Positions 3,708 through 50,847 of a stretch of 51,474 nt of DNA are shown here, piece after piece. Position numbers and translations under genes: made by a program. The notes beneath the pieces are model-generated. The model did no database searches, had not been told where the DNA came from, and worked only from the letters and a program-made list of their open reading frames with translations. Within the stretch, counting starts at the first letter, position 1, and each line of letters starts with the position of its first letter. Source of the stretch: a phage; sequence record PZ445410.1; one strand, 5' to 3'.

Positions 3708-3995
3708 ATGGCTAAAAGCAATCGTAAAATGTTGATTAACGCATTCGAAAAGGAAGCGCTTGAGCGTGGTTGGAATGACTCATTTCACACAGCAAACTGT
3801 ATCCGCCGTTACGGATTCAAGGATTGCCGATCCTGGGCGCGTCAAATGGCTTCATGGTATGATCTTGATGCGCATTACCTTGATATGGATTGCGCCCTGG
3901 TTGAAATGATTGAGCAGGCCGCACTAGAGGATCGACCATTAACGCAATCTGATTTTGACGATTTTGTGCGCGATGAAATCTATTACATGAGCTAA
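3708..3995 (+). CDS. hypothetical protein (95 aa)
   Basis: AAAGGAGGAAA RBS before ATG. Confidence 0.55.
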   Translation: MAKSNRKMLINAFEKEALERGWNDSFHTANCIRRYGFKDCRSWARQMASWYDLDAHYLDMDCALVEMIEQAALEDRPLTQSDFDDFVRDEIYYMS

Positions 3996-6690: not shown

Positions 6691-8258
6691 TGCTGATTTG
6701 GGAAGACTTAACAGCGGCGCAAAAACGCGCCATTAAGGAAATGAGCGAATATTCATTCGAAAAGATGATCCGCATTTGGTTTCAACTTCTCCAGGGGCAA
6801 AGGTTCTTAGGAAACTGGCATTTCAGTTACCTATGCAGCGAAGTTGAAAAAATCATCAAAGGCGAGTCACAGAATGTAATTTTCAACATAACGCCAGGCA
6901 GCGGTAAAACAGAGATATTCTCGATCCACATGTCACCTTATGCGTCATTGAAAAGTAAGAAGGTGAGAAATCTTAATTTGTCGTTTAGTGATGGCCTTGT
7001 CCAGCAGAACAGCAACCGCATCAAAGAGATTATTGGTTCTCCAGAATGGCAGGAGCTATGGCCTGGAAAGCTGGCAAAGGCGAGCGCAAAGGATTTGATT
7101 GTAACCGATGGCGGCAAGGTTAAATTGCAAGTTAACTCGCGATCAATTGGTGGTCAGGTTACTGGTCTGCGTGGCGGCTACATGGACGATGGTTTTACTG
7201 GTATGTTGGTTCTTGATGATCCAGACAAGCCGGATGACATGCTTTCTAAGGTGAAGCGCGAAGCCGGACACATGCGCCTAAAGAACACGGTGCGATCGCG
7301 TCGAATGAAAGACACTACGCCAATTGTGATGGTTCAGCAACGTCTACACGTCAATGATTCAACATGGTTCATGACAAACGGCGGCATGGGCGGCATCCAG
7401 TTTAAGGTGGTCAGTATTCCAGCGCTCGTTACTAAGGAATATCGCGAAACTCTTCCTGATTGGTTAAAGCCTGAGTTTGATCGCGATGTTTTGTCCAGTA
7501 AGCCAGTGATGATTGATGGCGTTGCTCATTATTCATTCTGGCCTGCTAAGGAAAGCGCTGAGGAATTACTTGCACTTCGCAATGCTGATCCGTACACGTT
7601 CGCTAGTCAGTATCAGCAACAGCCTGTTGCGCTTGGCGGTAACGTGTTTAAAACAGAGTGGTTTCAGTATTACGGCAGCAGCGAGAAATGCACGCTACCA
7701 AAACCGGATCGCTTTGAATATACATTTATCACGGTTGATACCGCGCAGAAAACAGGTGAGCTTAACGACTACTCCGTGATCTGTTATTGGGGGATGTATA
7801 AAGATCGCGTTTACTTCATTGATGGTGTTCGCGGAAAATGGGAAGCACCAGACCTTGAGAATAATTTTGTTGCGTTCGTTAATCAGTGCTGGAAGCGCAA
7901 TAAAGAATGCGGAACGTTGCGAAGGATTCATGTTGAAGATAAGTCATCTGGCACTGGCTTGATTCAGAGTGCAGCGAAAAAAATCATGATCAAGATCAAT
8001 CCCGTTCAGCGCGATAAAGACAAGGTTACTCGCGCAATGGACGCAGCGCCAGTAATGCGCGCCGGACGCGTAGCACTTCCAGAATCGCATCCTATGCTGG
8101 CTGAGATACTAGCTGAAGTTGCGGCGTTTACATTCGATGATAGCCATCCTCATGATGATATTGTTGATAACATCATTGATGCGGTTAACATTGAAATGAA
8201 CATGGCAGATGATCCGGTTGGAAGAATGAAAAAATTGGCAGGTTTGCGGAACAAATAG
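6690..8258 (+). CDS. terminase large subunit
   Basis: 522 aa, GSGKT P-loop-like motif, directly upstream of portal. Confidence 0.75.
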   Translation: MLIWEDLTAAQKRAIKEMSEYSFEKMIRIWFQLLQGQRFLGNWHFSYLCSEVEKIIKGESQNVIFNITPGSGKTEIFSIHMSPYASLKSKKVRNLNLSFSDGLVQQNSNRIKEIIGSPEWQELWPGKLAKASAKDLIVTDGGKVKLQVNSRSIGGQVTGLRGGYMDDGFTGMLVLDDPDKPDDMLSKVKREAGHMRLKNTVRSRRMKDTTPIVMVQQRLHVNDSTWFMTNGGMGGIQFKVVSIPALVTKEYRETLPDWLKPEFDRDVLSSKPVMIDGVAHYSFWPAKESAEELLALRNADPYTFASQYQQQPVALGGNVFKTEWFQYYGSSEKCTLPKPDRFEYTFITVDTAQKTGELNDYSVICYWGMYKDRVYFIDGVRGKWEAPDLENNFVAFVNQCWKRNKECGTLRRIHVEDKSSGTGLIQSAAKKIMIKINPVQRDKDKVTRAMDAAPVMRAGRVALPESHPMLAEILAEVAAFTFDDSHPHDDIVDNIIDAVNIEMNMADDPVGRMKKLAGLRNK

Positions 8259-8284
8259 CACGAATCGACAAACCAATATATAAT
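8256..8284 (+). promoter_or_regulatory. TAGCAC-box variant (TAGCACGAATCGACAAACC) with TATAAT at 8279-8284
   Basis: TAG is the terminase stop; followed directly by a terminator-like hairpin. Confidence 0.4.
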
Positions 8285-8285
8285 C

Positions 8286-8312
8286 AAAGGCTGGTAAATC
8301 CAGCCTTTTTTA
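8286..8312 (+). terminator. intrinsic terminator-like hairpin (possible attenuator)
   Basis: AAAGGCTGG-TAAAT-CCAGCCTTT then TTTTT. Confidence 0.5.
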
Positions 8313-12492: not shown

Positions 12493-12504
12493 CACAAAAT
12501 TATG

Positions 12505-12532
12505 TTGCACGTTTAACAAAAAATGCTATCAT
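12505..12532 (+). promoter_or_regulatory. sigma70-type promoter (TTGCAC, 16 nt, TATCAT)
   Basis: Hexamers with 16-nt spacer; spacer contains a reverse-oriented partial TAGCAC-box (TTAACAAAAAATGCTA). Confidence 0.4.
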
Positions 12533-12575
12533 TGTGGCGTTACATACTAACAGCCTTTATATATGGAGGAAGAAA

Positions 12576-13550
12576 ATGGAAAAAGAAAAATTTGATCAGC
12601 TAGATGCAGATATTGTTTCTAGTTATCTGGCTACTCGCGGCGTTAAAGGTGATGCGTCCGATATGGGTATTTGGACCGCTCAAGAGCTACACAAGATTCG
12701 CTCTAATGCTTACGAGAAAGAGTATCCGGCAGGTTCGGCGCTTCGTGTGTTCCCTGTAACTAATGAGCTTTCTGATACTGATAAGACTTTTGAATACCAG
12801 ACTTTTGATAAAGTTGGTTACGCAAAAATTATCGCTGATTATACCGACGACCTGCCAACTGTTGACGCTTTAATGTCCAGCGAGTTTGGTAAGGTGTTCC
12901 GACTTGGTAACGCGTTCTTGATCTCCATTGACGAAATCAAGGCTGGTCAGCGTACTGGTAAGAGCCTTTCCACTCGCAAGGCAAACGCAGCGCAAAACGC
13001 TCATGATCAGGAAGTTAACCGCCTGGTGTTTAAGGGTTCAAAGCCGCATAAGATTCTTTCGGTGTTTGAGCACCCTAACCTGACAAAGATCGTGTCAACT
13101 GGCTGGTTAAGTGCTGATGAAAACACTAAGTTCCCGCAGGCGGCATCTGATGAACTGGAAAAGGCTATTGAAACAATTCAGACCATCACCAATGGTCAGC
13201 ATCGAGCAACCAACATCCTGATTCCGCCGTCTATGCGCAAGGTTCTTTCCGTTCGAATGGAAAACACCACTGAAAGTTATCTGGAATACTTCCAGAAACA
13301 AAACAGCGGAATCACCATTGACTCAATCGCAGAGCTTGAGGATATTGATGGCACAGGAACGAAAGGTTGCCTGGTATATGAGAAAGACCCGATGAACATG
13401 TCGATCGAAATTCCAGAAGCATTTAACATGCTTCCGGCGCAACCAAAAGATCTGCATTTCAAAGTTCCGTGCACTTCAAAATGTACTGGCCTGACGATTT
13501 ACCGTCCGTTTACGCTAGTGCTTATTACTGGCTTGAAAAAATCAGGTTAA
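12576..13550 (+). CDS. major capsid protein (putative)
   Basis: 324 aa, GGAGGAAGAAA RBS, own promoter and strong terminator downstream; assignment by position and size. Confidence 0.55.
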   Translation: MEKEKFDQLDADIVSSYLATRGVKGDASDMGIWTAQELHKIRSNAYEKEYPAGSALRVFPVTNELSDTDKTFEYQTFDKVGYAKIIADYTDDLPTVDALMSSEFGKVFRLGNAFLISIDEIKAGQRTGKSLSTRKANAAQNAHDQEVNRLVFKGSKPHKILSVFEHPNLTKIVSTGWLSADENTKFPQAASDELEKAIETIQTITNGQHRATNILIPPSMRKVLSVRMENTTESYLEYFQKQNSGITIDSIAELEDIDGTGTKGCLVYEKDPMNMSIEIPEAFNMLPAQPKDLHFKVPCTSKCTGLTIYRPFTLVLITGLKKSG

Positions 13551-16204: not shown

Positions 16205-16207
16205 TAA

Positions 16208-16232
16208 CAAGGGGCGTTGCGCCCCTTTTTTT
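16208..16232 (+). terminator. intrinsic terminator
   Basis: GGGGCG-TTG-CGCCCC then T7. Confidence 0.7.
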
Positions 16233-16246
16233 GTTACTGTACAATC

Positions 16247-16289
16247 ATGATACACGATTCATAATCAATTCTTTTAACAAAAAGTGCTA
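16247..16289 (-). promoter_or_regulatory. TAGCAC-box cassette in reverse orientation (TATCAT at canonical spacing)
   Basis: Exact reverse complement of the motif 15 nt upstream of the G gene ATG; points into the 16208-16232 terminator. Confidence 0.3.
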
Positions 16290-16303
16290 TCAAGGAGAAA
16301 GAA

Positions 16304-16621
16304 ATGTCAAAAATGAAATTGACGATTGGGCCGCTTCCTGACTTTAAATTACCAGTGAAATTTGCAATGCCTAACGGAGAAGATCAAACAATTATCTTCA
16401 CAGTTCGCCACCGCAAAACAAGTGAGATTCACGAGCGCTACACGTCAGATACTCCAATGAGCGATGTTGAAATGATCACCTTCCTTGCTTCTGGTTGGAA
16501 TCTTGATGATGAATTTAACGAAGAAAATATTAAACAGCTTCTTGATTACTACCCAGCAACAGCAATCGGATTAACTAGCGCATACATGAAAGCGCTTGCG
16601 GGGCAGCGAGTAAAAAACTAA
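16304..16621 (+). CDS. tail assembly chaperone (gpG-like)
   Basis: 105 aa ORF before tape measure, ends just after slippery heptamer. Confidence 0.65.
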   Translation: MSKMKLTIGPLPDFKLPVKFAMPNGEDQTIIFTVRHRKTSEIHERYTSDTPMSDVEMITFLASGWNLDDEFNEENIKQLLDYYPATAIGLTSAYMKALAGQRVKN

Positions 16622-16932
16622 AAAGGGCGGTTTACCTGTTTTATCAGAAACCGCCGACAGATGCAGAGCTTGAGGCTGTTGGCCTTACAAGGGCAGACTA
16701 TGAAGGAGAAGATCCGCCAGAGGTTATATTTGATGAAAGCATGATGCAATCATGGGATATATTTTGCGCAATGCAAACGCAATGGAGATGTTCTGGCGGT
16801 GGAGCTTACGGATTTGATTATAATGTCTTGCCTATGCTTTTTGAGATTTACAAGGTTGAGGATCGCGAGATGGCGCTAAACGACTTGCGAATCATGGAGC
16901 AAAAAGCACTTGAAATGATGCATTCAAAATAA
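16304..16932 (+). CDS. tail assembly chaperone G-T fusion via programmed -1 frameshift at A_AAA_AAC (16612-16618)
   Basis: -1 frame is open from 16579 to 16932; canonical X_XXY_YYZ heptamer 2 codons before G stop. Confidence 0.55.
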
Positions 16933-16971: not shown

Positions 16972-19644
16972 ATGTCAGAACAATACGCAGGCTTGACGCT
17001 TGGGGTTGATGTATCTCAACTCAACAATGCTGTAAAGTCTTTGCAGCAATTCAAGAAGGCAAACGACGACGCAAAGGGAAGCGTTGAGAGTTTTGTTGAT
17101 TCAGAGGTTGTTGCAAGACAAAGAGCCAAACAACTGGCTGAGGAATTGGCAAAGCAGAAGCAAGAATTTAAAGCAATTCAGTCGGCAATAGATCCGACAG
17201 CAAGCAAAATGGATAAGTTGCGCCAGGCTGCGACACAGCTTGATGCACTATGGAAAAAAGGAATTGTGCCGGATGATACATTCTTTGAATTAGGTTCAAT
17301 TCTTGAGACACAGCAAAACAAGCTGATCGCAACGAAAAAGGCGCTAACAGAAGAAGGCCGAGCGGCGATTGAGGAAGCAAAGAATAAAGCCAGGGCAGAG
17401 GCTGAGGCCAGAAAGTTCATTGCGGCATTACAGGCACAAGCAGACGCAGCAGAAAAGACAAAATCAGAACTTGTTGAAATGAGAGCCGCACAACTTGGAG
17501 TTAGTGCGGAGGCCGCGCCATTTATTGCAAAAATGAAGGAGCAGGAAAAACAAGCCTCAAAACTTGGCGTTTCTATGGGGCAGTACAAGCAAGCAATGGC
17601 GCAATTGCCAATGCAGATCACTGACGTTGTTACTTCTCTTGCTTCAGGAATGCCAGTATGGATGATCGCAATCCAGCAGGGCGGGCAGATCAAGGACTCA
17701 TTCGGCGGTGTTGCTAATACTTTTAAAGCGCTAATGACATTTGTCACGCCGCTAAGTGTTGGAATGACGGCGCTGACTGGTGCTCTTGGGTATGCAGCAT
17801 ATAACGCTTACAAAGCCAACGCACAACTGAAGGAGATCACAAAAACCGTTCAGGATGTAACAGGTCTTTCCGGTGAGTTTGCAGAGCGGATCGCAACTGG
17901 AATCCAGGCGCTATCTGACAAGACAGGAGAGAGCGCAGACAATATCGCAAAGGCTTACATAAGCACTAAGGATGGAGCAAGCGAGGCTATACAAAAACTC
18001 GTCGATGTTGGATTTACCTATGACGAAGCAAAGGCAAAAGTAAACGAATACAAAAACGCATCAAGTTTTGTAAGTCTTAACAATGAAATTGCTGATCACA
18101 AAAACAAAGTTCTTGAGCTTGGCGATTCATGGTATGCGGTCTTAAAAGCAAAACGTGATTATGCTTCACCGTCCGGCGGGCTGTTGGGGAAAGAGCTTGG
18201 TTATGTGAATCCAATGCTGCAATTTGCGAAGAACACCTATGAGGATATAGGAAAGATCGTAAAAGATGCGAATAAGGATATGGCGGAACGAGCAGCACGC
18301 ATCGACAGAGAAAACCTTTCCTTAAACAGAGTTCGAGCGGCGCAAGAGGCTTTAAACAAAGCCATAGAGGATCAGAAGAACGTAGCAAGGACAGCAGACG
18401 AAGAGTTGAAAAAACGAGCGGCTGAGAACGTGGAGTTCAGGAGAAAAGAGCTTGAAGAGGCGAAGAAGGCGCAGCAGCAAAAGGAAAAAGTTGGTGGAGT
18501 TGTAAAAGCACCAACAGAGCAGCTTGATAAGGAGCTATATGTTCTCAAAGCGCAACTTGAAACTCTGAAAGAGCACCGAACTGTAAATGATGTTATTTCA
18601 CGCCAGAGGCAATCTTTGTGGAGTATTGAAAAGCAGATCCAGATCCTGGAGGAAGCGCAAAGCAAACGTAAGCTGACAAAAGCGGAACAGGCGTTACTAA
18701 ACGAGCAAAAAACAGTTCTTGCCATGGCAAAAGAAAAGGCCGAGATAGGCGATCAGATTGTTTTGCAACAGAGAAAGAACAAGCAATACCAGGAAGGGCT
18801 AAAGTTCATTCAGCAAACTTCAGATGCCATTGATGCTATGAACTTGCGACAGTCTGGAGCTACAGATCTGCAAATCCAGCGAGAGCTTGAATTGAAAAAG
18901 TTGCGAACTGATTATGTTGCTGGCGGAGGTAGTATCGACGATGAAATTTATCAGCAGATGGAAGAAAAGCTGAAGGAGTATTACGCCACTGAGGATCAGC
19001 TAAGAAATAACTGGATTGCAGGAGCAAAAAACGCATGGGAGGTTTACGGACAAGATGCAATGGATATGTACGGAAACGTGCAAGATATTGCAAGCGAGGC
19101 GCTCAACGGTCTAACCAACCAAATGGCTACATTCCTTGCAACAGGCAAGGCAAACTTTAAGAGCTTCGCAACGTCAATCATCCAAATGATTATCCAGATG
19201 ATCACGAAGATGGTTATCTTTAATGCCATATCTGGTGCGATTGGCGGTGACACTTGGACGATTGGAAGCCTTCTTAAAAATGTTGGATTTGCAACTGGTG
19301 GATACACTGGCGACGGCGGGAAGTATGAGCCAGCAGGTGTTGTCCATAAAGGCGAGTTTGTCATGACGAAGGAGGCCACGAAGCGGATCGGAGTTGGAAA
19401 TCTTTACAAAATGATGCGCGGTTATGCAAATGGCGGCGTTGTTGGCGGAACTTCATACACTGGCGGCGGAGTTTCATCTGGAGCAACAAATCTTAATATT
19501 GGTGGGATCAGCGTTGATATTAACAACGGAAACGATCCGAAAGGGTTGGAGACTGGCGTAAAAATGATTTTCACTGATATGATTAAGCGTTCCTGTACGC
19601 AGGGTGGGGAAGTTTACGAATTTGTTATGTCTAAGCGGGGGTGA
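16972..19644 (+). CDS. tail tape measure protein
   Basis: 890 aa, long Ala/Glu/Lys/Gln-rich coiled-coil-like stretches, Gly-rich C-terminal part; position after G/GT. Confidence 0.8.
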
Positions 19645-22174: not shown

Positions 22175-22208
22175 TCAACAAATCAAATAGCACAAAAGGT
22201 GAAAAAGC

Positions 22209-25200
22209 ATGGCTGAAAATATGATAACGGGCAGTAAGGGTGGATCATCAAAACCTTATGTGCCGAAAGAGATGGAAGATAACCTGATCTCAATCAACAA
22301 AATCAAAATCCTTCTTGCCGTTTCCGATGGTGAGTGCGATCCAGATTTCACGCTTCGCGATCTGTATCTCGATGATGTTCCGGTAATTGCAGATGATGGA
22401 ACTGTTAACTATCAGGGTGTGAAAGCTGAATTTCGACCCGGAACGCAGACGCAAGATTACATCCAGGGGTTTACTGACACATCAAGCGAAGTGACGCTGG
22501 CGCGTGACATTACGACGACAAATCCTTATGTAATTTCCGTAACCAACAAAACATTATCGGCTATCAGAATCAAAATGCTAATGCCAACAGGCATTAAGCA
22601 AGAGGATAACGGCGATCTTGTCGGCGTTAAGGTTACTTATGCTGTTGATATGGCTGTTGACGGAGACTCTTACAAAGAGGTATTGCTAGACACTATCGAA
22701 GGTAAAACGCGTTCCGGTTACGACAGAAGCCGGAGGATTGACCTTCCGGCATTTAATGATCGCGTATTACTTAGGGTTAGAAGGGTTACGGCAGACAGCA
22801 CATCTTCTCGTGTTACTGATCTGATTAAACTACAAAGTTACGCTGAGGTTATTGATGCAAAATTCCGTTATCCTCTGACTGGTCTTGTTTACGTTGAATT
22901 TGACAGCGAATTGTTCCCAAATCAGATCCCTAACATTTCAATCAAGAAGAAATGGAAGCTGATTAACGTTCCGAGTAACTACGATCCTGTTTTGAGAGAG
23001 TATCACGGTTCATGGGATGGAACATTCAAAAAAGCATGGTCAAATAATCCAGCATGGGTGCTTTATGACATTATCACAAACCAGCGATATGGATTAGATC
23101 AGCGAGAGCTTGGTGTGCAGGTTGACAAATGGAGTCTTTACGAAGCGGCGCAATACTGCGATCAGAAAGTGCCGGACGGAAAAGGCGGCACAGAGCCGCG
23201 TTATCTATGCGACGTTGTGATTCAAAGCCAGATTGAGGCTTATCAGCTTATTCGTGATATTTGCTCAATCTTCAGAGGCATGAGCTTTTGGAATGGAGAG
23301 AGCTTGTCAATCGTCATTGATAAGCCGCGCGATCCGTCGTACATCTTCACAAATGACAATGTTGTTGATGGTGATTTTCAGTACACAACAGCAAGTGAAA
23401 AGAGCATGTACACGCAGTGCAACGTGACGTTCGATGACGAACAAAACATGTATCAACAGGACGTAGAGGGTGTATTCGACACAGAGGCCGCATTGCGATT
23501 TGGATACAATCCTACAAGCATAACCGCGATCGGATGTACACGCAGGAGTGAGGCTAATCGGCGCGGTCGATGGATACTAAAAACCAACTTGCGCAGCACT
23601 ACGGTAAACTTTGCTACTGGACTGGAAGGCATGATCCCATCAATAGGTGATGTGATTGCTATTGCTGACAATTTTCACAGCAGCAACCTTAAATTAAACC
23701 TATCAGGGCGCGTGATGGAAGTTTCCGGCTTGCAGGTGTTCGTTCCGTTTAAGATTGACGCGCGACCAGGTGATTTCATTATCATCAACAAGCCGGACGG
23801 AAAGCCAGTTAAGCGCACAATCTCAAAAGTAAGCGGTGACGGAAAAACCATTGAACTAAACATTGGGTTTGGGTTTGAAGTTAAACCTGACACGGTTTTT
23901 GCAATCGACCGCACTGATATTGCATTGCAGCAATACGTTGTAACGAGTATCGGCAAAGGTGATGATGATGATGAATTTACATACTCCATCACGGCTGTTG
24001 AATATGACCCTAACAAATACGACGAGATTGATTATGGAGTAAACATTGACGACAGGCCAACTTCAATTGTCCAGCCTGACACAATGGCAGCGCCTGAAAA
24101 TGTGCAAATATCCTCATACTCGCGAATTGTCCAGGGTGCAAGCGTTGAGACAATGGTTGTGTCGTGGGATAAAGTACCTTACGCATCGCTGTATGAAATG
24201 CAATGGCGAAAAGGTGATGGCAACTGGCTGAATACACCACAGACCGCAAACAAAGAAATTGAGGTTGAAGGTATTTATTCAGGAAACTACCAGGTAAGGG
24301 TTAGATCTGTTTCCGCTTCAGGTTCTACGTCTCCGTGGTCCAGAATTGTGACAGCATCACTGACTGGTAAGGTAGGAGAGCCAGGCGCGCCAGTTAACTT
24401 AACCGCATCCGACAATGAAGTGTTTGGCATTCGTGTTAAGTGGGGGATGCCAGAAGGGAGCGGAGACACGGCATACATTGAGCTTCATCAGTCGCCGGAT
24501 GGAACGGCTGAAAACTCAAGCCTGCTAACGCTGATCCCGTATCCACAATATGAATACTGGCACGGTACGCTTCCGGCTGGTCATGTTGTATGGTATCGGA
24601 TCAGGAGCGTAGACAGGATCGGCAACGTTTCCGGTTGGACTGATTTTGTTAGAGGTATGGCTTCAGATGATGTGGAGGCTGTTTTAGGAGATATTCTTGA
24701 TAAGATTTTTGATACTGAAGCAGGTCAGGATCTTAAAGAGAACGCCATTGACAGTGCAAACAAGATAAAGGACCAGGCGCAAGCAATCATCCAGAATGCT
24801 CTTGCTAATGATGCTGATATTAAGTGGACGCGAGTACAAAATGGAAAGCGAAAGGCTGAATATGGTCACGCGCTTGAGCTTATCGCCACAGAGACTGAGG
24901 CGCGAGTTACGCAGATTGAAGAATTGAGGGCGTCAATCGACGAGGATATTGTTTCAAGCATAAAGACAGTGCAGGAGGCTATCGCCACAGAATCTGAAAC
25001 GCGAGCAACTCAAATAAATGCTTTGGATTCAAAATTCACAACTGAAATTGACGGTGTAAAACGCGATACAGCCGCAAGCATTAATCAGGTTAATCAAACC
25101 ATTGCCAATGAGTCAGAAGCGCGCGCGCAGGCCGTTAACGCGCTTGATGCGAAGTTCACAAAGGAGATCGAAGATTTAAACGGAGTCATTAAGACTGAGG

Positions 25201-32793: not shown

Positions 32794-33062
32794 TCCCTAA
32801 GTTTTTGATCCGTCACAACGGTTCTGCTATTGAATAATTTCGCATCGTAATTATCATTAATGATGCGAGCGTTCACAAAATAACCATCATTTTTCTCTAC
32901 AATTTCCTCTCCTTCTTCCGTTACAGATACAACAGTGTAAGTGTTCCCGATAACGTCGAGAAGAATTGCATCCTGAATGGATTCGTTTTCGTTCCATTCA
33001 ATTTCTTCAAGAAAGGCAGAAAACTCTGCCTTGTCTGCAAATTTCAGTGTTAAATCTCTCAT
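32784..33062 (-). CDS. hypothetical protein (92 aa), possible fibre assembly factor
   Basis: ORF coupled between fibre gene and S74-domain gene. Confidence 0.4.
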   Translation of the reverse strand: MRDLTLKFADKAEFSAFLEEIEWNENESIQDAILLDVIGNTYTVVSVTEEGEEIVEKNDGYFVNARIINDNYDAKLFNSRTVVTDQKLREWA

Positions 33063-35017
33063 TATACAATTTCCCCCAATTGATGATCTGTTAATGCCTT
33101 ATGCCAGATCCTAAAGTTTCTAATGTGTCCAAACAAATGGCGCTCTCCAGTTCCTGTTTGTCCGCCAAACCTGATATTTTTATCTCCTGTTACGCCTATG
33201 TAATCGCAGTATGAATCAGACACTGCTATAGCATTGGTGACAACATGAAATTTGCCATCAGATTTTGCAATGCATCCAAAAGTGGATTTTTTTGCAAACA
33301 CATCAGATGCCGCGCTATTAATATATGCCCCAGCAGGCGTTGATAAACTCATGTATAATTTTCCACTTCCTCTATTTATTGCCGCAATTGCTGATTGACC
33401 AGTATTTGCAGCAGCTATATCCCAAACACGAGGGGCAGAATTTGGAGCAACATCCCAACACTTACTAACCTCAAGCAAAAAAGTAAACGGCAATTTATAT
33501 AGGTTGTTTTTTGTTGGAATGCTAACAAGATCGCTAGCTCTCGTTGTTGGCATTGAAGTTATAATAAATGACGATGCTGTATTTCCAAGTTCAATTTGCG
33601 GCGTAGCCATCGTTAACGTTGAATCAGAATAAAATGGTTCGTTGTTAATTTTATTAGTCATGTAAAATGCACAATTAACAGTGTCAACATTTGTATTGGC
33701 TGTATATGTCGCTTGATAATACATCCATTCGCCATCCTGTTCCACTTTAGCGGTTATAAGTGAAGTGTCTCCACTTACCGATGCAACCAAAGTATCAAGA
33801 TCCAAATAAGAATCAGCAGAAAATGTATCTACTCCATCAATAATTGTAGACACTCGAAGCCTGCATCTTGCTTTAGCACCTTTAACCCTACAAGAAAAGG
33901 TGAAACTTTCACCTGACACCAAAGGGAATCTATCGGCTGTAACAACTCCATGAACGGTATAACCTCCAGTAGTACCAACAATACTTTCTACAGGGGTGAC
34001 TGTAGCGTAGTTAAAACCACGATCATCCGTTCCGAAAGTTTTATTTAAAGAAGAATGAATAGTCCAAGAATCTGTTTTATTTGAGTTTCTTAGATAGTTA
34101 GTTCTTTGCCCTTCGATTAAAAGACCTTCTTTTTCAAAACGAGGTTCGTCAATCTCCGCAACAGTCAATACACCTGATTTGTTAATATAAGTTGCTGTTG
34201 AAGCGCGTGAAAATGTAACTACTTTATCTGTTGGCATAGTTATAACATCATTACCAACTGTTATTTTTTTGTAACCAGGTGCAAAGCCTGTAATCATCTC
34301 AAGAGAATCATTAAACGGTATCCACACGTCGGGCAGCGGTTGCAATAAATCTTTGTAAGGTTCTGCGGCCTGCCTTGCGTATTCCTCCGCTTGATCTCGC
34401 GCACTTTCAGCTCCTGCCTTTGCAGTGTTCGCAGCGTTACGCGCGGATTCAGCGCCAGACTTTGCTGTTTCAGCGCCAGTCTTTGCAGTGTTTGCAGCGT
34501 CGCGCGCGGATTCAGCAGCGGTCTTTGCAGTATCAGCGCCTTTCTTGCTGTTTTCTGCATTTGTTGCGCTTTTCTTCGCGTTATTCTCGCTAGTTTTAGC
34601 GGCCTTCTGGCTTGCTGCGGCCGCAGCAGCATCGCTCTTTACGTCAGCCTGTATCTGTTGAAGTTTATCCCAATCAAATGTTTCGATGATCTCAATGAAT
34701 CTGGCAAATTCAGTTTCTTTACCCTGGTAATATCGCAGTGTTTCAGCGACATCTTGCGCCAGGCCATCAACAGTTATTGAATCATGAAGCATGATCAGAT
34801 AGTTTGTCTTTGCTACAACAGCGCCGCCAGTAGTAATGGCGCGAATGCTTGTGTCGCTAATAACCTCAGTGATTACAGCGGCTTGCATTGGATTTGTTAA
34901 GAAAAATATTGTTGCACCAGGGCGAATGAGTGTTAGCTGTTCGCGCCATTTTGTGCCGTATCCAGTTATATAACCTTGCGCGTCCATTGACGCCTGTCCG
35001 GTTCTGTAAATTGCCAT
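33062..35017 (-). CDS. side tail fibre protein
   Basis: T7 gp17-like N-terminal virion-attachment region, Ala-rich tandem repeats, C-terminal lectin-like region; GGGAG RBS at chosen ATG. Confidence 0.65.
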
Positions 35018-35073
35018 GCGTTTTCTCCCATGTTGTATGTTAATGTCAATGCAGATAATAGCATTTGACAAGG

Positions 35074-35098
35074 CAAAAAAAAACCCCGCAATGCGGGG
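35074..35098 (-). terminator. intrinsic terminator (minus strand)
   Basis: CCCCGC-AAT-GCGGGG preceded on the plus strand by A9. Confidence 0.65.
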
Positions 35099-36577: not shown

Positions 36578-36591
36578 TATTCATTCTCCAA

Positions 36592-36633
36592 TAGCATTTT
36601 TTGTTAAACGATGATTTAATGATTGTGTATTAT
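36592..36633 (+). promoter_or_regulatory. TAGCAC-box variant (TAGCATTTTTTGTTAAACG) with TATTAT
   Basis: Motif at canonical spacing upstream of helicase. Confidence 0.45.
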
Positions 36634-38706: not shown

Positions 38707-39112
38707 TAAAGGCGATTATCTTGAGTTTTACGAAAGAGATCCGACGGATACGCTAAAAGAGGAATCACACCAGATTGGGGCGTTTCAATGGTTAACTTAT
38801 GCTCATCCTGAATTGCTGGCATGGCATACGAAAAACGAGGGCGACAAGGGAATCGCCACAGCAATGATGGATCAGCAAGCTGGACTTGTTAAGGGAGTAA
38901 GTGATTTTATCATCCTGATTGGATTAAAAGGCCGTTACCCGTTCGCGGCAATAGAGATGAAGCGCGTCAATAAGTCCGGCAAGGGGAAGGCTTCACCAGT
39001 CAGCAAGGAGCAAAAAGCCTTCTTGCGCCGCGTGCGTGAGCTTGGCGGATTCGCTGCCGTAACATACGGATATAAGCAATTCATGATCGCGGTAGAATAC
39101 ATGATGAAATAG
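38693..39112 (+). CDS. VRR-NUC domain nuclease (putative)
   Basis: PD-(D/E)XK-like VSDFIIL...AAIEMKR; SKEQKAFL...G pattern; overlaps helicase stop. Confidence 0.5.
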   Translation: MAMTDKGDYLEFYERDPTDTLKEESHQIGAFQWLTYAHPELLAWHTKNEGDKGIATAMMDQQAGLVKGVSDFIILIGLKGRYPFAAIEMKRVNKSGKGKASPVSKEQKAFLRRVRELGGFAAVTYGYKQFMIAVEYMMK

Positions 39113-39152
39113 CACTTTTTGTTAAAACAGGCGCGAAGGATTGCGCCATAAT
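39110..39152 (+). promoter_or_regulatory. TAGCAC-box promoter-like cassette (CATAAT at 39147-39152)
   Basis: TAG is the upstream stop; GGCGC..GCGCC inverted repeat in spacer. Confidence 0.5.
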
Positions 39153-39892: not shown

Positions 39893-40153
39893 ATGCAGAA
39901 AGAAAGAAGAGTTGTACTTAATGAAGATGGCGAATTTCTTTTGTATCGCGCTATGGTATGCGATGCACTTGATAAAAACCCTAACGTGAAAAAGATGATT
40001 GATTGCGATCCGTGGGAATTTTCAAGCGCATTAGATATGAGCTTTGAGGAGACAAAAAAACTCCCACTTGAAAAATGGCACGAACAAATCAGAAATGACA
40101 TGCAAGAATTTGTCGATTCGTGGAATTTTCAGAACGGAATGATCCACCAATAG
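39893..40153 (+). CDS. hypothetical protein (86 aa)
   Basis: GGAG RBS then ATG; track ORF 39560..40153 extends this frame back over the methylase and is rejected. Confidence 0.45.
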   Translation: MQKERRVVLNEDGEFLLYRAMVCDALDKNPNVKKMIDCDPWEFSSALDMSFEETKKLPLEKWHEQIRNDMQEFVDSWNFQNGMIHQ

Positions 40154-40193
40154 CACTTTTTGTTAAAACGCCCGACCTTGTGTCGGGCATAAT
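40151..40193 (+). promoter_or_regulatory. TAGCAC-box promoter-like cassette (CATAAT at 40188-40193)
   Basis: TAG is the upstream stop; GCCCGAC..GTCGGGC inverted repeat in spacer. Confidence 0.5.
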
Positions 40194-40225
40194 TATTTCA
40201 TCAAAACGAACAAGAGGAAAACAAA

Positions 40226-43352: not shown

Positions 43353-43370
43353 ATTCGTTCCGATGAAACA

Positions 43371-43413
43371 AATATACCCGATACGAGATCGGGAGTTTTA
43401 ACAAAAAGTGCTA
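43371..43413 (-). promoter_or_regulatory. TAGCAC-box promoter-like cassette (TATATT)
   Basis: Exact motif on minus strand; its TAG is the stop of ORF 43411..43605. Confidence 0.5.
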
Positions 43414-46214: not shown

Positions 46215-46257
46215 ATTATGCCAGGCTTTTACACCTGGCTTTTAACAAAAAGTGCTA
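46215..46257 (-). promoter_or_regulatory. TAGCAC-box promoter-like cassette (CATAAT)
   Basis: TAG is the stop of the methyltransferase-like gene; CCAGG..CCTGG inverted repeat in spacer. Confidence 0.5.
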
Positions 46258-47856: not shown

Positions 47857-48050
47857 TACACAACCTCCATAATAGTATTGAATCCACGCAGTTTGAAAGC
47901 ATTTCCATGTTTAACAACGTTCCATGTCAGGCCGGAGTGATACGCAACCATATCCTCAAGATCAATGGTGATGATAGCGCCTTTCTTAAAGATTCCTTTC
48001 TCGTGAGTAGTGTCACGCTGTACAACTTTAACATCAACTTGATTTTCCAT
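47856..48050 (-). CDS. hypothetical protein (64 aa)
   Basis: ORF downstream of promoter-like cassette. Confidence 0.5.
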   Translation of the reverse strand: MENQVDVKVVQRDTTHEKGIFKKGAIITIDLEDMVAYHSGLTWNVVKHGNAFKLRGFNTIMEVV

Positions 48051-48081
48051 TTTTAAATCCTCGTTCGTTGTCGATGCGCAT

Positions 48082-48124
48082 AATATACCAATCAGAGGCG
48101 CATCGGTTTTAACAAAAAGTGCTA
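48082..48124 (-). promoter_or_regulatory. TAGCAC-box promoter-like cassette (TATATT)
   Basis: Motif follows TAA stop of ORF 48126..; CGATGCGC..GCGCATCG inverted repeat flanks the -10-like box. Confidence 0.5.
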
Positions 48125-48920: not shown

Positions 48921-48958
48921 TTGCTTTCTCCTGATGGGTATCTCGTTTCGATGGGATA

Positions 48959-49001
48959 ACTATACCAGGTTATCCCGATCGTGCTTTAACAAAAAGTGCT
49001 A
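48959..49001 (-). promoter_or_regulatory. TAGCAC-box promoter-like cassette (TATAGT inside GGGATAAC..GTTATCCC hairpin loop)
   Basis: Motif on minus strand at canonical spacing; first promoter of the leftward early operon. Confidence 0.5.
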
Positions 49002-49264
49002 TTTGCTGACTGGTCATTATTCCACATATTCCATTAATCAGGAATAACAGGAATAATTCATTCGCGATCACCTGGATTGTGAGACTTTGAGTTTGATCAA
49101 TTTTAATCAGTTGATTAACTTTTTGTGTGGAGGGGATAGAGAAATGCGGCCCTCTTGCATCCTTTCCGGCAATCCTGGCGCGCACATCTGTTATTTCTGT
49201 TCCCCGTGTTATCTCAAATAAGCCTCCGCACTTTTAGATAACAGAATCGGCGTTCATCAACAAA

Positions 49265-49480
49265 AAGAACAAAATAAAATTTATATATATACCCATAAAA
49301 TCAATAAGTTAGTTATATATGTATTTATATTTGTTATTTACTGTTGAGCTTGTTCTATTGGTATATGGTGGGGTGGTATTGTTTGTGGTGATATGTATGT
49401 GTGATTGTATATTTTTTAATCAATGGTGATGTGTGGTGATTTTTGTATGTATATATATGGGTATGGGGCAATCCTCCGTC
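49265..49480. repeat. AT-rich, C-depleted iteron-like element, copy B
   Basis: Shares core with copy A; three GGTGAT words; about 110 nt with almost no C on the plus strand. Confidence 0.6.
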
Positions 49481-49593
49481 AACCAAGTCAACAAGGTCAT
49501 TTTTAACAGAAAAACCAATGGCTTAACTGAAGCATTTTGTTATCTTTAAACACGCCATGCGCCAAAAATTGTTATTAAAACACAAAAATACAT

Positions 49594-49621
49594 TGACATG
49601 CAGGAAGGGCAAGGCAATAAT
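49594..49621 (+). promoter_or_regulatory. sigma70-type promoter (TTGACA, 16 nt, AATAAT)
   Basis: Consensus -35; A/T-rich upstream region. Confidence 0.5.
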
Positions 49622-49657
49622 GCATTAAGTTTAAACGCAACAAAAGGAGTAGATGCC

Positions 49658-50128: not shown

Positions 50129-50388
50129 TGAATAAGGCATTAATTGGAGTTTTGATTGCAATTGCTACCCTGACCGGATGCGAAAAGGCATCTGAATCAA
50201 CGGTAGTCGTAGGCGTGGAGTCAGATTTTAAAGTCGGTCGCCTGTTTACTGTTGATGGATGCACTGCGTACCGATTCTATGACAACGGTCGGGCAATCTA
50301 TTACACCAATTGTAAGGGCGCAACGGATAGCACATACCGCAGCGGCAAAAACGTAATGCACCAACAAGTCACAACAGATATGAAATAG
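50128..50388 (+). CDS. lipoprotein (86 aa), early-expressed
   Basis: Signal peptide MNKALIGVLIAIATLTGC with lipobox. Confidence 0.55.
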   Translation: MNKALIGVLIAIATLTGCEKASESTVVVGVESDFKVGRLFTVDGCTAYRFYDNGRAIYYTNCKGATDSTYRSGKNVMHQQVTTDMK

Positions 50389-50428
50389 CACTTTTTGTTA
50401 AAACGCCAGGTGCAAATCCTGGCATAAT
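50386..50428 (+). promoter_or_regulatory. TAGCAC-box promoter-like cassette (CATAAT at 50423-50428)
   Basis: TAG is the lipoprotein stop; GCCAGG..CCTGGC inverted repeat in spacer. Confidence 0.5.
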
Positions 50429-50460
50429 AGCCTCATCGAAACGAGATTGAGGAAAACAAA

Positions 50461-50661: not shown

Positions 50662-50847
50662 ATGAAAACGAAATTAGTCCATAAATCAGAAATCAAGATC
50701 GGCGATACTGTGATTCACAACGGAGAGCTTAGAACGGTTGGCAAAGAGTCAATAAGCCGCGATGAATTTATGGGGATCTTGTTGTTCGGTGACTCTTATC
50801 GGCTGGGTTATAAAATGGTTGAGCTTGTGGAAGAGGTAAAATTCTAA
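50662..50847 (+). CDS. hypothetical protein (61 aa)
   Basis: ORF. Confidence 0.5.
   Translation: MKTKLVHKSEIKIGDTVIHNGELRTVGKESISRDEFMGILLFGDSYRLGYKMVELVEEVKF

Follow-up and report, generated by a model that had tools for sequence, protein, structure and literature searches.

Closest described systems

The repeat family considered here is already known from phage TLS. A 2024 reannotation of that genome describes a 21-nt direct repeat, aaATAGCACnnnTTGnTAAAA, which is present in 21 copies, 18 of them intergenic, and which is also carried by T1, Rtp and Rogue1 (PMC11447400). The repeats are described as running 'in the direction of transcription' about 76 nt 5' of start codons. Their function is listed as an open question, with stoperators, enhancer sites and UP elements given as suggestions (PMC11447400). 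The sequence record PZ445410.1, a stretch of 51,474 nucleotides that was analysed at its full length and is called the window below, is the complete or near-complete genome of a T1-like siphophage (Drexlerviridae, Tempevirinae, Hanrivervirus). Its nearest relatives are Escherichia phages egaa and aaroes and Shigella phage pSf-1, with an identity of about 97%. The phage is virulent and encodes neither a polymerase nor a sigma factor, and its late structural genes lie between about 6.1 and 25.8 kb on the plus strand. The TAGCAC box of the window is the published Drexlerviridae intergenic repeat. Two of its copies, upstream of the capsid gene and of the tail chaperone gene, stand in reverse orientation, are conserved among relatives and overlap the promoter regions of these late genes, where they may act as regulatory sites.

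The TLS repeats DR1 to DR18 resemble the boxes of the window in sequence, in number (about 20 copies per genome) and in the presence of both TTT and GAA sub-types. Supplementary Table S1 of the TLS paper places DR7 at 15044-15024 on the negative strand, adjoining a hairpin named 'T35' (PMC11447400). DR7 is the homologue of the capsid copy, and its reversed orientation receives no comment in that paper. TLS itself differs from the window in belonging to a lineage without the chaperone copy. Reversed copies that overlap promoters, the dyad in the core of the repeat, its fixed distance of 18-19 nt from a -10 element, the antisense promoter at the chaperone gene, and a regulator gene with a reversed box in its leader are all absent from PMC11447400. 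The family is thus already described, and its reversed, promoter-overlapping use is new. A literature search with the motif as a sequence string returned nothing relevant, and searches aimed at transcriptomes of T1-like phages gave nothing useful.

In phage lambda, CI bound at OR2 activates PRM from about -42 and represses PR, and this -42 geometry is shared with class II activators. The arrangement proposed below would be of the lambda CI/Cro type, in that a helix-turn-helix protein would bind a partly symmetric operator, activating near -42 and repressing where its site lies over a promoter. The tripartite operator of lambda contrasts with about 20 dispersed sites in a virulent phage, for which binding and activation are predictions. 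The candidate regulator of the window also has conserved N-terminal (basic) and C-terminal regions that are additional to those of Cro and CI.

The stoperators of mycobacteriophages L5 and Bxb1, an analogy that comes from the TLS authors (PMC11447400), are likewise numerous, short, asymmetric and orientation-biased, and some lie in transcribed leaders. In contrast, most boxes of the window are located 5' of a -10 element, as activator sites would be, and outside transcription units. Unlike L5 and Bxb1, the window phage has no lysogeny repressor or integrase.

Two further systems share single traits with the window. T4-type PeSL cassettes are repeats of a promoter and a stem-loop that lie between small early genes and are possible substrates for shuffling (PMC2839356, PMC4122927). 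The early cassettes of the window consist of a box, a variable hairpin and a -10 element. Whereas PeSL cassettes are found at variable-gene junctions, the reversed copies are conserved and form part of late promoters. Face-to-face promoters such as Pant/Psar of P22 and pR/pL of 186, or those that share a symmetric -10 element, place opposite-strand promoters within one polymerase footprint. The chaperone intergenic region and the regulator/helicase region of the window have this layout, so that occlusion or interference would be possible there. They differ from the P22 and 186 cases in that one partner would depend on an upstream 21-nt box, and the starts in the window are deduced from sequence.

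The repeat and its early promoters

A consensus search allowing up to four mismatches finds about 21 convincing boxes in the window. Nineteen are oriented with their flanking genes, and only the capsid and chaperone copies (Table 1) oppose them. Early copies mostly carry zero or one mismatch, and those in the late region are more degenerate, with two to four. A 20-mer derived from both reversed copies matches 13 sites in the window with up to three mismatches, where 0.03 are expected. The bare hexamer TAGCAC is not enriched (24 observed in the window, 19 expected). The meaningful unit is therefore the 20-21-mer.

Most forward boxes (17/19) are followed, 18-19 nt downstream, by a hexamer of the form [T/C]AnnnT (CATAAT, TATAAT, TATAGT, TATATT and similar). 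The offset is 19 nt in 14 of these promoter-type boxes and 18 nt in the other three. A TTGTTA lies 22 nt away from the early -10 element, and a usable -35 element is therefore lacking. All 17 promoters stand before early or DNA-metabolism genes. Seven nucleotides past the hexamer is a conserved CATCGAAACGA-like leader, followed by a Shine-Dalgarno sequence and the ATG. If transcription begins at the A of CATCGAAACGA, a position deduced from the -10 hexamer, the centre of the dyad within the box falls at -42. The early boxes of T1 have the same architecture. Boxes of the late region are instead found on or just 3' of sigma-70-type promoters, in either orientation.

The reversed copy in the capsid promoter

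The capsid copy matches the commonest early box at 17 of 21 positions, with four mismatches among the 17 specified consensus bases. It is intergenic (12493-12575) and lies 44 nt from the capsid ATG at 12576. The first-pass annotation of this DNA, made from the letters alone, had noticed a partial reverse copy in the spacer of the capsid promoter, and the fuller analysis bears this out. The copy occupies the spacer and the extended -10 region, supplying the TGn and the TAT of the -10 hexamer. Its dyad is centred at about -18 relative to an inferred start near 12539, which lies within the hairpin 12536-12556.

Ten GenBank relatives and 80 loci from IMG/VR yield 76 distinct sequences upstream of the capsid gene. 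In 74 of them a TTGNNN stands exactly 16 nt ahead of a TATNNT hexamer. The reversed core is kept with no more than two mismatches among 14 specified bases in 64 of the 76, and shuffled controls mostly show five or six. Klebsiella-phage lineages carry the GAA ('G-group') variant of the capsid copy, TTTAGCAATTCGTGCTATTCT, and the TTT variant occurs as well. Promoter spacers normally vary freely, and the conservation of this one therefore implies sequence-specific recognition. An antisense promoter was also considered for this copy and discarded, since T-7 is present at cassette spacing on the minus strand in only one of 40 distinct relatives.

Late promoters, this one included, are interlocked with terminators. 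The -10 elements of the capsid and portal promoters are located just 5' of a hairpin and T-run (12527-12560 and 8279-8311). The starts would lie inside the left arm of each hairpin, so that transcripts arriving from upstream would terminate and those started locally would escape.

The reversed copy upstream of the chaperone gene

The chaperone copy is closer to consensus, matching the commonest early box at 19 of 21 positions, with two mismatches among the 17 specified bases. It lies in the intergenic region 16205-16303, with its right end 11 nt from the chaperone ATG at 16304 and directly 5' of the Shine-Dalgarno sequence GGAG. The reversed TAGCAC near the chaperone gene that the first-pass annotation reported occupies 16284-16289 of the minus strand, and 14 nt separate it from the ATG. 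The minus-strand TATCAT noted there, read from 16252 to 16247, is also confirmed, and its offset from the box is the one seen in 14 of the 17 promoter-type boxes. The chaperone and capsid copies thus belong to the repeat by sequence, and their placement is atypical: they are reversed and lie 11 and 44 nt, respectively, from an ATG, versus about 76 nt for typical copies.

GenBank relatives and 75 IMG/VR loci provide 23 distinct sequences in which a box precedes the chaperone gene. Phages with this copy belong to Hanrivervirus, Warwickvirus, Tunavirus (in T1 at 18852), Sertoctavirus (as the GAA variant) and other IMG/VR lineages. The copy is absent, and the intergenic region is shorter, in Tlsvirus, several Klebsiella phages, Rogunavirus and Hanrivervirus BEK12B. 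All 23 box-bearing sequences read on the minus strand as the 21-mer, exactly 19 nt, and then T-A-n-n-n-T. The 19-nt spacer is poorly conserved (0.73 bit per position). Within the hexamer, T-12, A-11 and T-7 are invariant (2.0 bits each) and the inner positions carry 0.37-0.58 bit, and a TGn precedes the hexamer in 20 of the 23. Judged by its sequence, this pattern shows the conservation that marks a sigma-70 -10 element, placed at the distance from the box that the early cassettes use.

Such conservation bears on the suggestion, made in the first-pass annotation, that reversed copies might be leftovers of cassette shuffling; the PeSL cassettes of T4-type phages would be a parallel. It is true that the chaperone copy comes and goes between lineages like an insertion or deletion, that box-less regions seem to hold remnants of it (TTTAAC, GCT..CAACC), and that the early cassettes resemble mobile units of promoter and stem-loop. 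However, the sequence, the exact 19-nt spacing and the T/A/T positions are kept across several genera beside a spacer that varies freely, and the capsid copy is conserved almost family-wide. Inert relics are therefore very improbable. Insertion or deletion is still a possible origin of the chaperone copy, which several lineages do not have.

Compared by eye with 16246-16303, the box-less regions (loci L004, L008 and L027-L031) resemble deletion derivatives that keep different ends of the box. A Tlsvirus-type remnant has TTTAAC ahead of the Shine-Dalgarno sequence, and a Klebsiella-type remnant has GCT..CAACCAATCAGGAG. If this reading by eye is right, the retention of different ends would imply at least two independent losses. 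The chaperone gene itself spans 16304-16621 and is followed by a short open reading frame (16741-16932) before the tape-measure gene, the usual place for a G/GT-type frameshift.

Predicted face-to-face promoters at the chaperone gene

A sense promoter for the chaperone gene can be read from the sequence of the same region (Table 1). Its -35 element TTGCGC is located in the loop and right arm of the terminator of the major-tail-protein gene, and TTGC is found in the corresponding loops of most relatives. Past the terminator, most relatives with a box have CTGTA[ACG]AAT or a minor variant of it, and most of those without a box have a comparable -10-like element (TGTAATAT or TATAAT) in this position. 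The inferred plus-strand start, near 16252, lies inside the minus-strand -10 element, and the minus-strand start would lie inside the plus-strand -10 element. The sense and antisense promoters therefore cannot be occupied simultaneously.

Two other plus-strand promoters were considered and rejected. The chaperone copy itself contains TGcTATCAA, but this hexamer ends in T in no relative (TATCAA, TATAAG, TATTAC and others occur) and transcription from it would begin, in the window, within the Shine-Dalgarno sequence; it is therefore not a sense promoter. A promoter reported by the scan (TGTACA, 16 nt, CATAAT) has a -10 element that is not conserved in relatives.

The minus-strand promoter points into the major-tail terminator hairpin. 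In one reading, an antisense RNA is the functional output of the chaperone copy. It would be a hairpin RNA of about 40 nt that ends at the major-tail terminator, or else a longer read-through RNA with complementarity to the 3' end of the major-tail mRNA, and it would adjust how much major tail protein is made relative to chaperone and tape-measure protein. The promoter is complete and conserved, the hairpin is terminator-like on the minus strand too, and a 45-nt model of the predicted RNA (16240-16196) folds at -16.2 kcal/mol with z = -3.9. The U-tract that follows the hairpin on the minus strand is weak (UUGUUAUUA), however, and the pairing target is itself already a stable hairpin. An Rfam scan of the whole window gives no match. 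An antisense product would also leave the capsid copy, which has no minus-strand -10 element, and the forward boxes in late leaders unexplained. Regulation by such an RNA is accordingly unlikely. The first-pass annotation had proposed short antisense transcripts for both reversed copies; the idea is plausible as a prediction for the chaperone copy and fails for the capsid copy.

A Cro-fold regulator with a box in its own leader

The box could be recognised by a protein that the phage encodes. A Pfam scan of 50 early proteins finds a single clear DNA-binding candidate, a 157-aa protein with a Cro-type helix-turn-helix, whose matches to YdaS and P22_Cro fall just under the cut-off. An early protein of 371 aa has a weak helix-turn-helix match and is filed by PHROGs as a DNA repair exonuclease. 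The 157-aa protein belongs to phrog_2856, 'transcriptional regulator', with 3e-78, and ST23, the T1 homologue, bears the annotation of a transcriptional regulator too. In the PDB, the 157-aa protein has sequence matches to the Cro proteins 5w8y and 3bd1. Its AlphaFold model has a pLDDT of 85.6, and in Foldseek this model gives target-normalised TM-scores of 0.70-0.75 against Xfaso1 Cro and N15 Cro. All 118 homologues with a named source come from T1-like phages or enterobacterial hosts, and the longer contigs that carry them are mostly about 50 kb in length.

Two segments of the protein stand out beyond the Cro-like part. An N-terminal stretch, DKRTxNGNNGTRRGKDKKPRKR, is highly conserved, strongly basic and of low confidence in the model, and a C-terminal motif, GYRASFCRPDLRFDxNGKP, is also conserved. 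Neither matches a known family.

The regulator gene and a helicase gene are divergent and share one box, which is in the forward orientation for the helicase promoter (Table 1). For the regulator this box is a third reversed copy, located in the leader directly 5' of its Shine-Dalgarno sequence. The regulator promoter (TTGAGT, 16 nt, TATAAT) reads leftward through the box to the Shine-Dalgarno sequence and ATG. At the equivalent site in TLS, DR11 is accompanied by 'P57', one of only three consensus promoters reported for that genome (PMC11447400). At the regulator gene, 36 of 37 distinct IMG/VR loci share the layout of promoter, about 22 nt, reversed box and Shine-Dalgarno sequence. Vibrio phage Vc1, Citrobacter phage HCF1 and the distant metagenomic locus L221 have this layout too, with a protein identity of just 46-54%. 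The regulator and chaperone genes thus share the same order of promoter, reversed box and Shine-Dalgarno sequence, and the reversed box in its own leader suggests that the regulator controls itself.

Since these two leaders contain reversed boxes, an effect at the RNA level has to be weighed as well. The leaders could pair over about 19 nt with forward boxes in read-through early mRNAs, masking the Shine-Dalgarno sequence or triggering cleavage. The complementarity is perfect over 19 nt, the box is immediately 5' of the Shine-Dalgarno sequence in both leaders, and upstream early genes end within forward boxes, so that read-through RNA would include them. The capsid copy, by contrast, lies upstream of its own inferred start, and the forward boxes in the late leaders of the J-like gene and the T1 small terminase gene would be unable to pair with forward-box RNA. 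The chaperone leader has no special structure by RNA folding of the plus strand (z = 0.28). This explanation is extremely improbable.

Other boxes in the late region

The reversed copies are accompanied by late-region boxes in the forward orientation. The degenerate box at the portal gene has no counterpart at the same place in T1. The arrangement at the J-like tail gene recurs in T1 at 25019 and in TLS as DR8. T1 additionally has a forward box just before the Shine-Dalgarno sequence of its small-terminase gene and a reversed box just before its minus-strand tail-fibre gene (34900-34920). The tail-fibre promoter of the window retains only the TGCTATTAT end of the box. Relative to inferred starts, three box centres would be inside transcribed regions, at about +31 for the chaperone gene, +15 for the J-like gene and +24 for the regulator gene.

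Shape of the box

The shape of the box was examined in a pool of 58 promoter-type boxes from the window, T1, Vibrio phage Vc1, Citrobacter phage HCF1 and the TLS table. Positions A3, A5-G6-C7-A8, T13, G15 and A18-A20 are invariant, and the centre is TTT, GAA or AAA. TAGCA-N5-TG(C/T)TA, the core, forms a partial inverted repeat whose half-sites are centred 10 bp apart, and the A-rich flanks are asymmetric. The half-sites match at five of five positions in 20 boxes and at four of five in 34. A partial dyad of this kind suggests a dimeric helix-turn-helix protein, to which it would add weak evidence if taken alone.

Known site types were compared with the box by eye, and the consensus sequences for sigma-54, CRP, IHF and Fis give no convincing fit. 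The sigma-54 consensus is TGGCACG-N4-TTGCW, with an offset of 11 nt from GG to GC. The box has AG in place of GG and an offset of 9 nt versus the canonical 11 nt, and it was rejected as a sigma-54 promoter.

A proposed mechanism and its weak points

With a chance that we put a little short of even, both reversed copies are maintained members of the 21-nt repeat that serve as DNA-level regulatory sites on sigma-70-type late promoters and are bound by the Cro-fold regulator. A factor-binding site that works in either orientation was among the possibilities raised in the first-pass annotation, and it has become the best supported of them, given the partial dyad, the promoter-linked boxes in both orientations and the box in the regulator leader. 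The comparison with relatives proposed there also finds the reversed copies conserved.

In this proposal, the box would be the operator of the conserved regulator, which would be produced from its consensus promoter soon after infection. Bound at -42, the regulator would switch on the early promoters that depend on the box. Wherever a box lies over a promoter, as at the capsid and portal genes, or in a leader, as at the J-like gene, the chaperone gene and the regulator gene itself, it would hinder transcription. At the capsid promoter, a dyad centred near -18 means that a bound protein would exclude RNA polymerase. The chaperone copy would be an entire promoter of the early type, placed on the minus strand. 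Its -10 element abuts the sense -10 element, and polymerase recruited to the antisense promoter would therefore occlude the sense promoter. Protein bound to this box, located at about +31 of the sense transcript and before the Shine-Dalgarno sequence, may also act as a roadblock. Late promoters would be held down until the regulator is diluted or titrated, and the reversed boxes probably help to keep late genes off early in infection. That release occurs by titration on replicated DNA is speculation.

Several observations weigh against this proposal. All start sites are read from -10 hexamers, and binding of the protein is a prediction from sequence. The chaperone copy is dispensable, because several lineages and Hanrivervirus BEK12B do without it. 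The TA of its minus-strand -10 element doubles as -1/+1 of the inferred plus-strand start, and conservation of these two bases could therefore serve the sense promoter in part. Box-less lineages have CA, CT or AT at this site, so the TA travels with the box, in lineages that are not independent samples. The dyad amounts to just 5 bp, and C and T are about equally frequent at its position 16 (28 and 30 of the 58 boxes). Early copies are strictly oriented, which would be needless for a purely symmetric site. The joint occurrence of regulator and box in Vc1 and HCF1 is uninformative about co-variation, because both are conserved. Finally, of the 15 positions in the E. coli Lrp consensus yAGhAwATTwTdCTr, the core TAGCACTTTTTG(C/T)TA fits 12-13, in a single selected comparison; the GAA variant agrees with this 15-nt SELEX consensus at 11 of 15. 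A host factor is thus a possible binder of the box, and we keep the resemblance to Lrp as a lead only.

This last point leads to the reading in which the box is an UP-element-like site for the alpha C-terminal domain or a site for a host factor such as Lrp. Such a site would boost promoters without a -35 element; the reversed copies would then persist only for the TGCTAT promoter parts that they contribute. UP elements were proposed by the TLS authors (PMC11447400). The TTTTGTTAAA sequence agrees with the TTTTnnnAAA part of the UP consensus, the core is like that of Lrp sites, and TGCTATNAT is used by late promoters, that of the tail-fibre gene included. In the GAA variant, however, the T-tract is missing and ATAGCAC and TAAAA are still invariant. 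Conservation of the whole core in a promoter spacer is unexpected of an UP element. The plus-strand hexamer of the chaperone copies lacks a final T in every case and is a poor -10 element, and the start in the window would lie inside the Shine-Dalgarno sequence. A host site of this kind is quite unlikely to account for the reversed copies.

A wider form of the regulator proposal, in which the 21-nt repeat is the operator of the ST23 family and one protein runs a temporal programme, is possible but doubtful. This programme would include activation of about 17 early promoters from -42, autoregulation, late boxes at -28, -18, +15 and +31, antisense occlusion at the chaperone gene, and titration by replication that draws the protein off degenerate late sites.

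Features of the locus and of the early cassettes

Coordinates of the reversed copies, their promoters and the related features of the window are collected in Table 1.

Table 1. Boxes, promoters, hairpins and genes of the window discussed in the text
Feature	Coordinates	Strand	Details
Reversed repeat copy, chaperone gene	16272-16292	-	plus strand TTTTAACAAAAAGTGCTATCA, minus strand TGATAGCACTTTTTGTTAAAA
Minus-strand -10-like hexamer TATCAT	16247-16252	-	exactly 19 nt past the box; inferred start ~16240
Inferred chaperone promoter	16217-16245	+	-35 TTGCGC 16217-16222, 17-nt spacer, -10 TACAAT 16240-16245; read from sequence
Major-tail-protein terminator hairpin	16209-16227		terminator-like on both strands (scan)
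Reversed repeat copy, capsid gene, more degenerate	12511-12531	-	minus strand TGATAGCATTTTTTGTTAAAC
Capsid promoter	12505-12532	+	TTGCAC 12505-12510, 16-nt spacer, TGc, TATCAT 12527-12532
Candidate box-binding protein, 157 aa, Cro-type helix-turn-helix	36104-36577	-	T1 ST23 homologue
Box common to divergent helicase and regulator promoters	36589-36609	+	forward for helicase: 18 nt, then TATTAT
Degenerate forward box 5' of portal gene	8253-8273	+	over -35 region of a TATAAT promoter; centre ~-28
Forward box at J-like tail gene	22185-22205	+	10 nt past TATAAT, 3 nt before ATG; centre ~+15 from inferred start
Tail-fibre promoter (gene 33062-35017), past terminator	35035-35075	-	TCAAATGCTATTAT; extended -10 keeping only the TGCTAT half
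Stop codons in or at boxes	3993-3995, 39110-39112, 40151-40153, 50386-50388, 50845-50847		
Hairpins between box and -10	39128-39146, 40169-40187, 43377-43395, 46221-46239, 50404-50422		CCAGG..CCTGG, GCCCGA..TCGGGC, GGCGC..GCGCC
Hairpins enclosing early -10	1367-1400, 48070-48106, 48950-48983		ending at inferred start

The early cassettes have several additional traits. The 19 nt or so between an early box and its -10 element usually hold a G+C-rich hairpin whose sequence differs with each copy. Some of these hairpins are labelled as terminators in the G29-2 and T1 records, yet they have no T-run after them. They could stabilise the upstream mRNA, terminate transcription on the opposite strand or form cruciforms. 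The CATCGAAACGA-like motif lies about 7 nt past each early -10 element, for example at 50435-50445, 40199-40210 and 43354-43364, with variants ATCGGAACGA and ATCGACAACGA. As it sits on the inferred starts, early mRNAs would have a common 5' end.

Upstream early genes often stop inside the box or at its edge, either at the TAG of ATAGCAC or at a TAA just before it. Each cassette therefore starts exactly at the end of the preceding gene.

The divergent intergenic region 49186-49657 contains a near-consensus sigma-70 promoter at 49593-49621 (TTGACA, 17 nt, AATAAT), which is likely to be an immediate-early promoter independent of the box. Elsewhere in the early region, a 64-aa protein encoded at 47859-48050 on the minus strand matches the Pfam family PF25180, 'Phage antiviral trigger protein Gp54', with 3e-37. 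Several of the small early proteins around it match only families of the DUF type (DUF7274, DUF7180, DUF7299, DUF7174, DUF7421).

Implications

Drexlerviridae are very common phages of E. coli and Klebsiella and are used in phage therapy collections. How T1-like phages order early and late expression with host RNA polymerase alone is a question that the geometry of the boxes makes testable. If the proposed role is true, the engineering of T1-like phages would gain useful parts in the boxes and the regulator.

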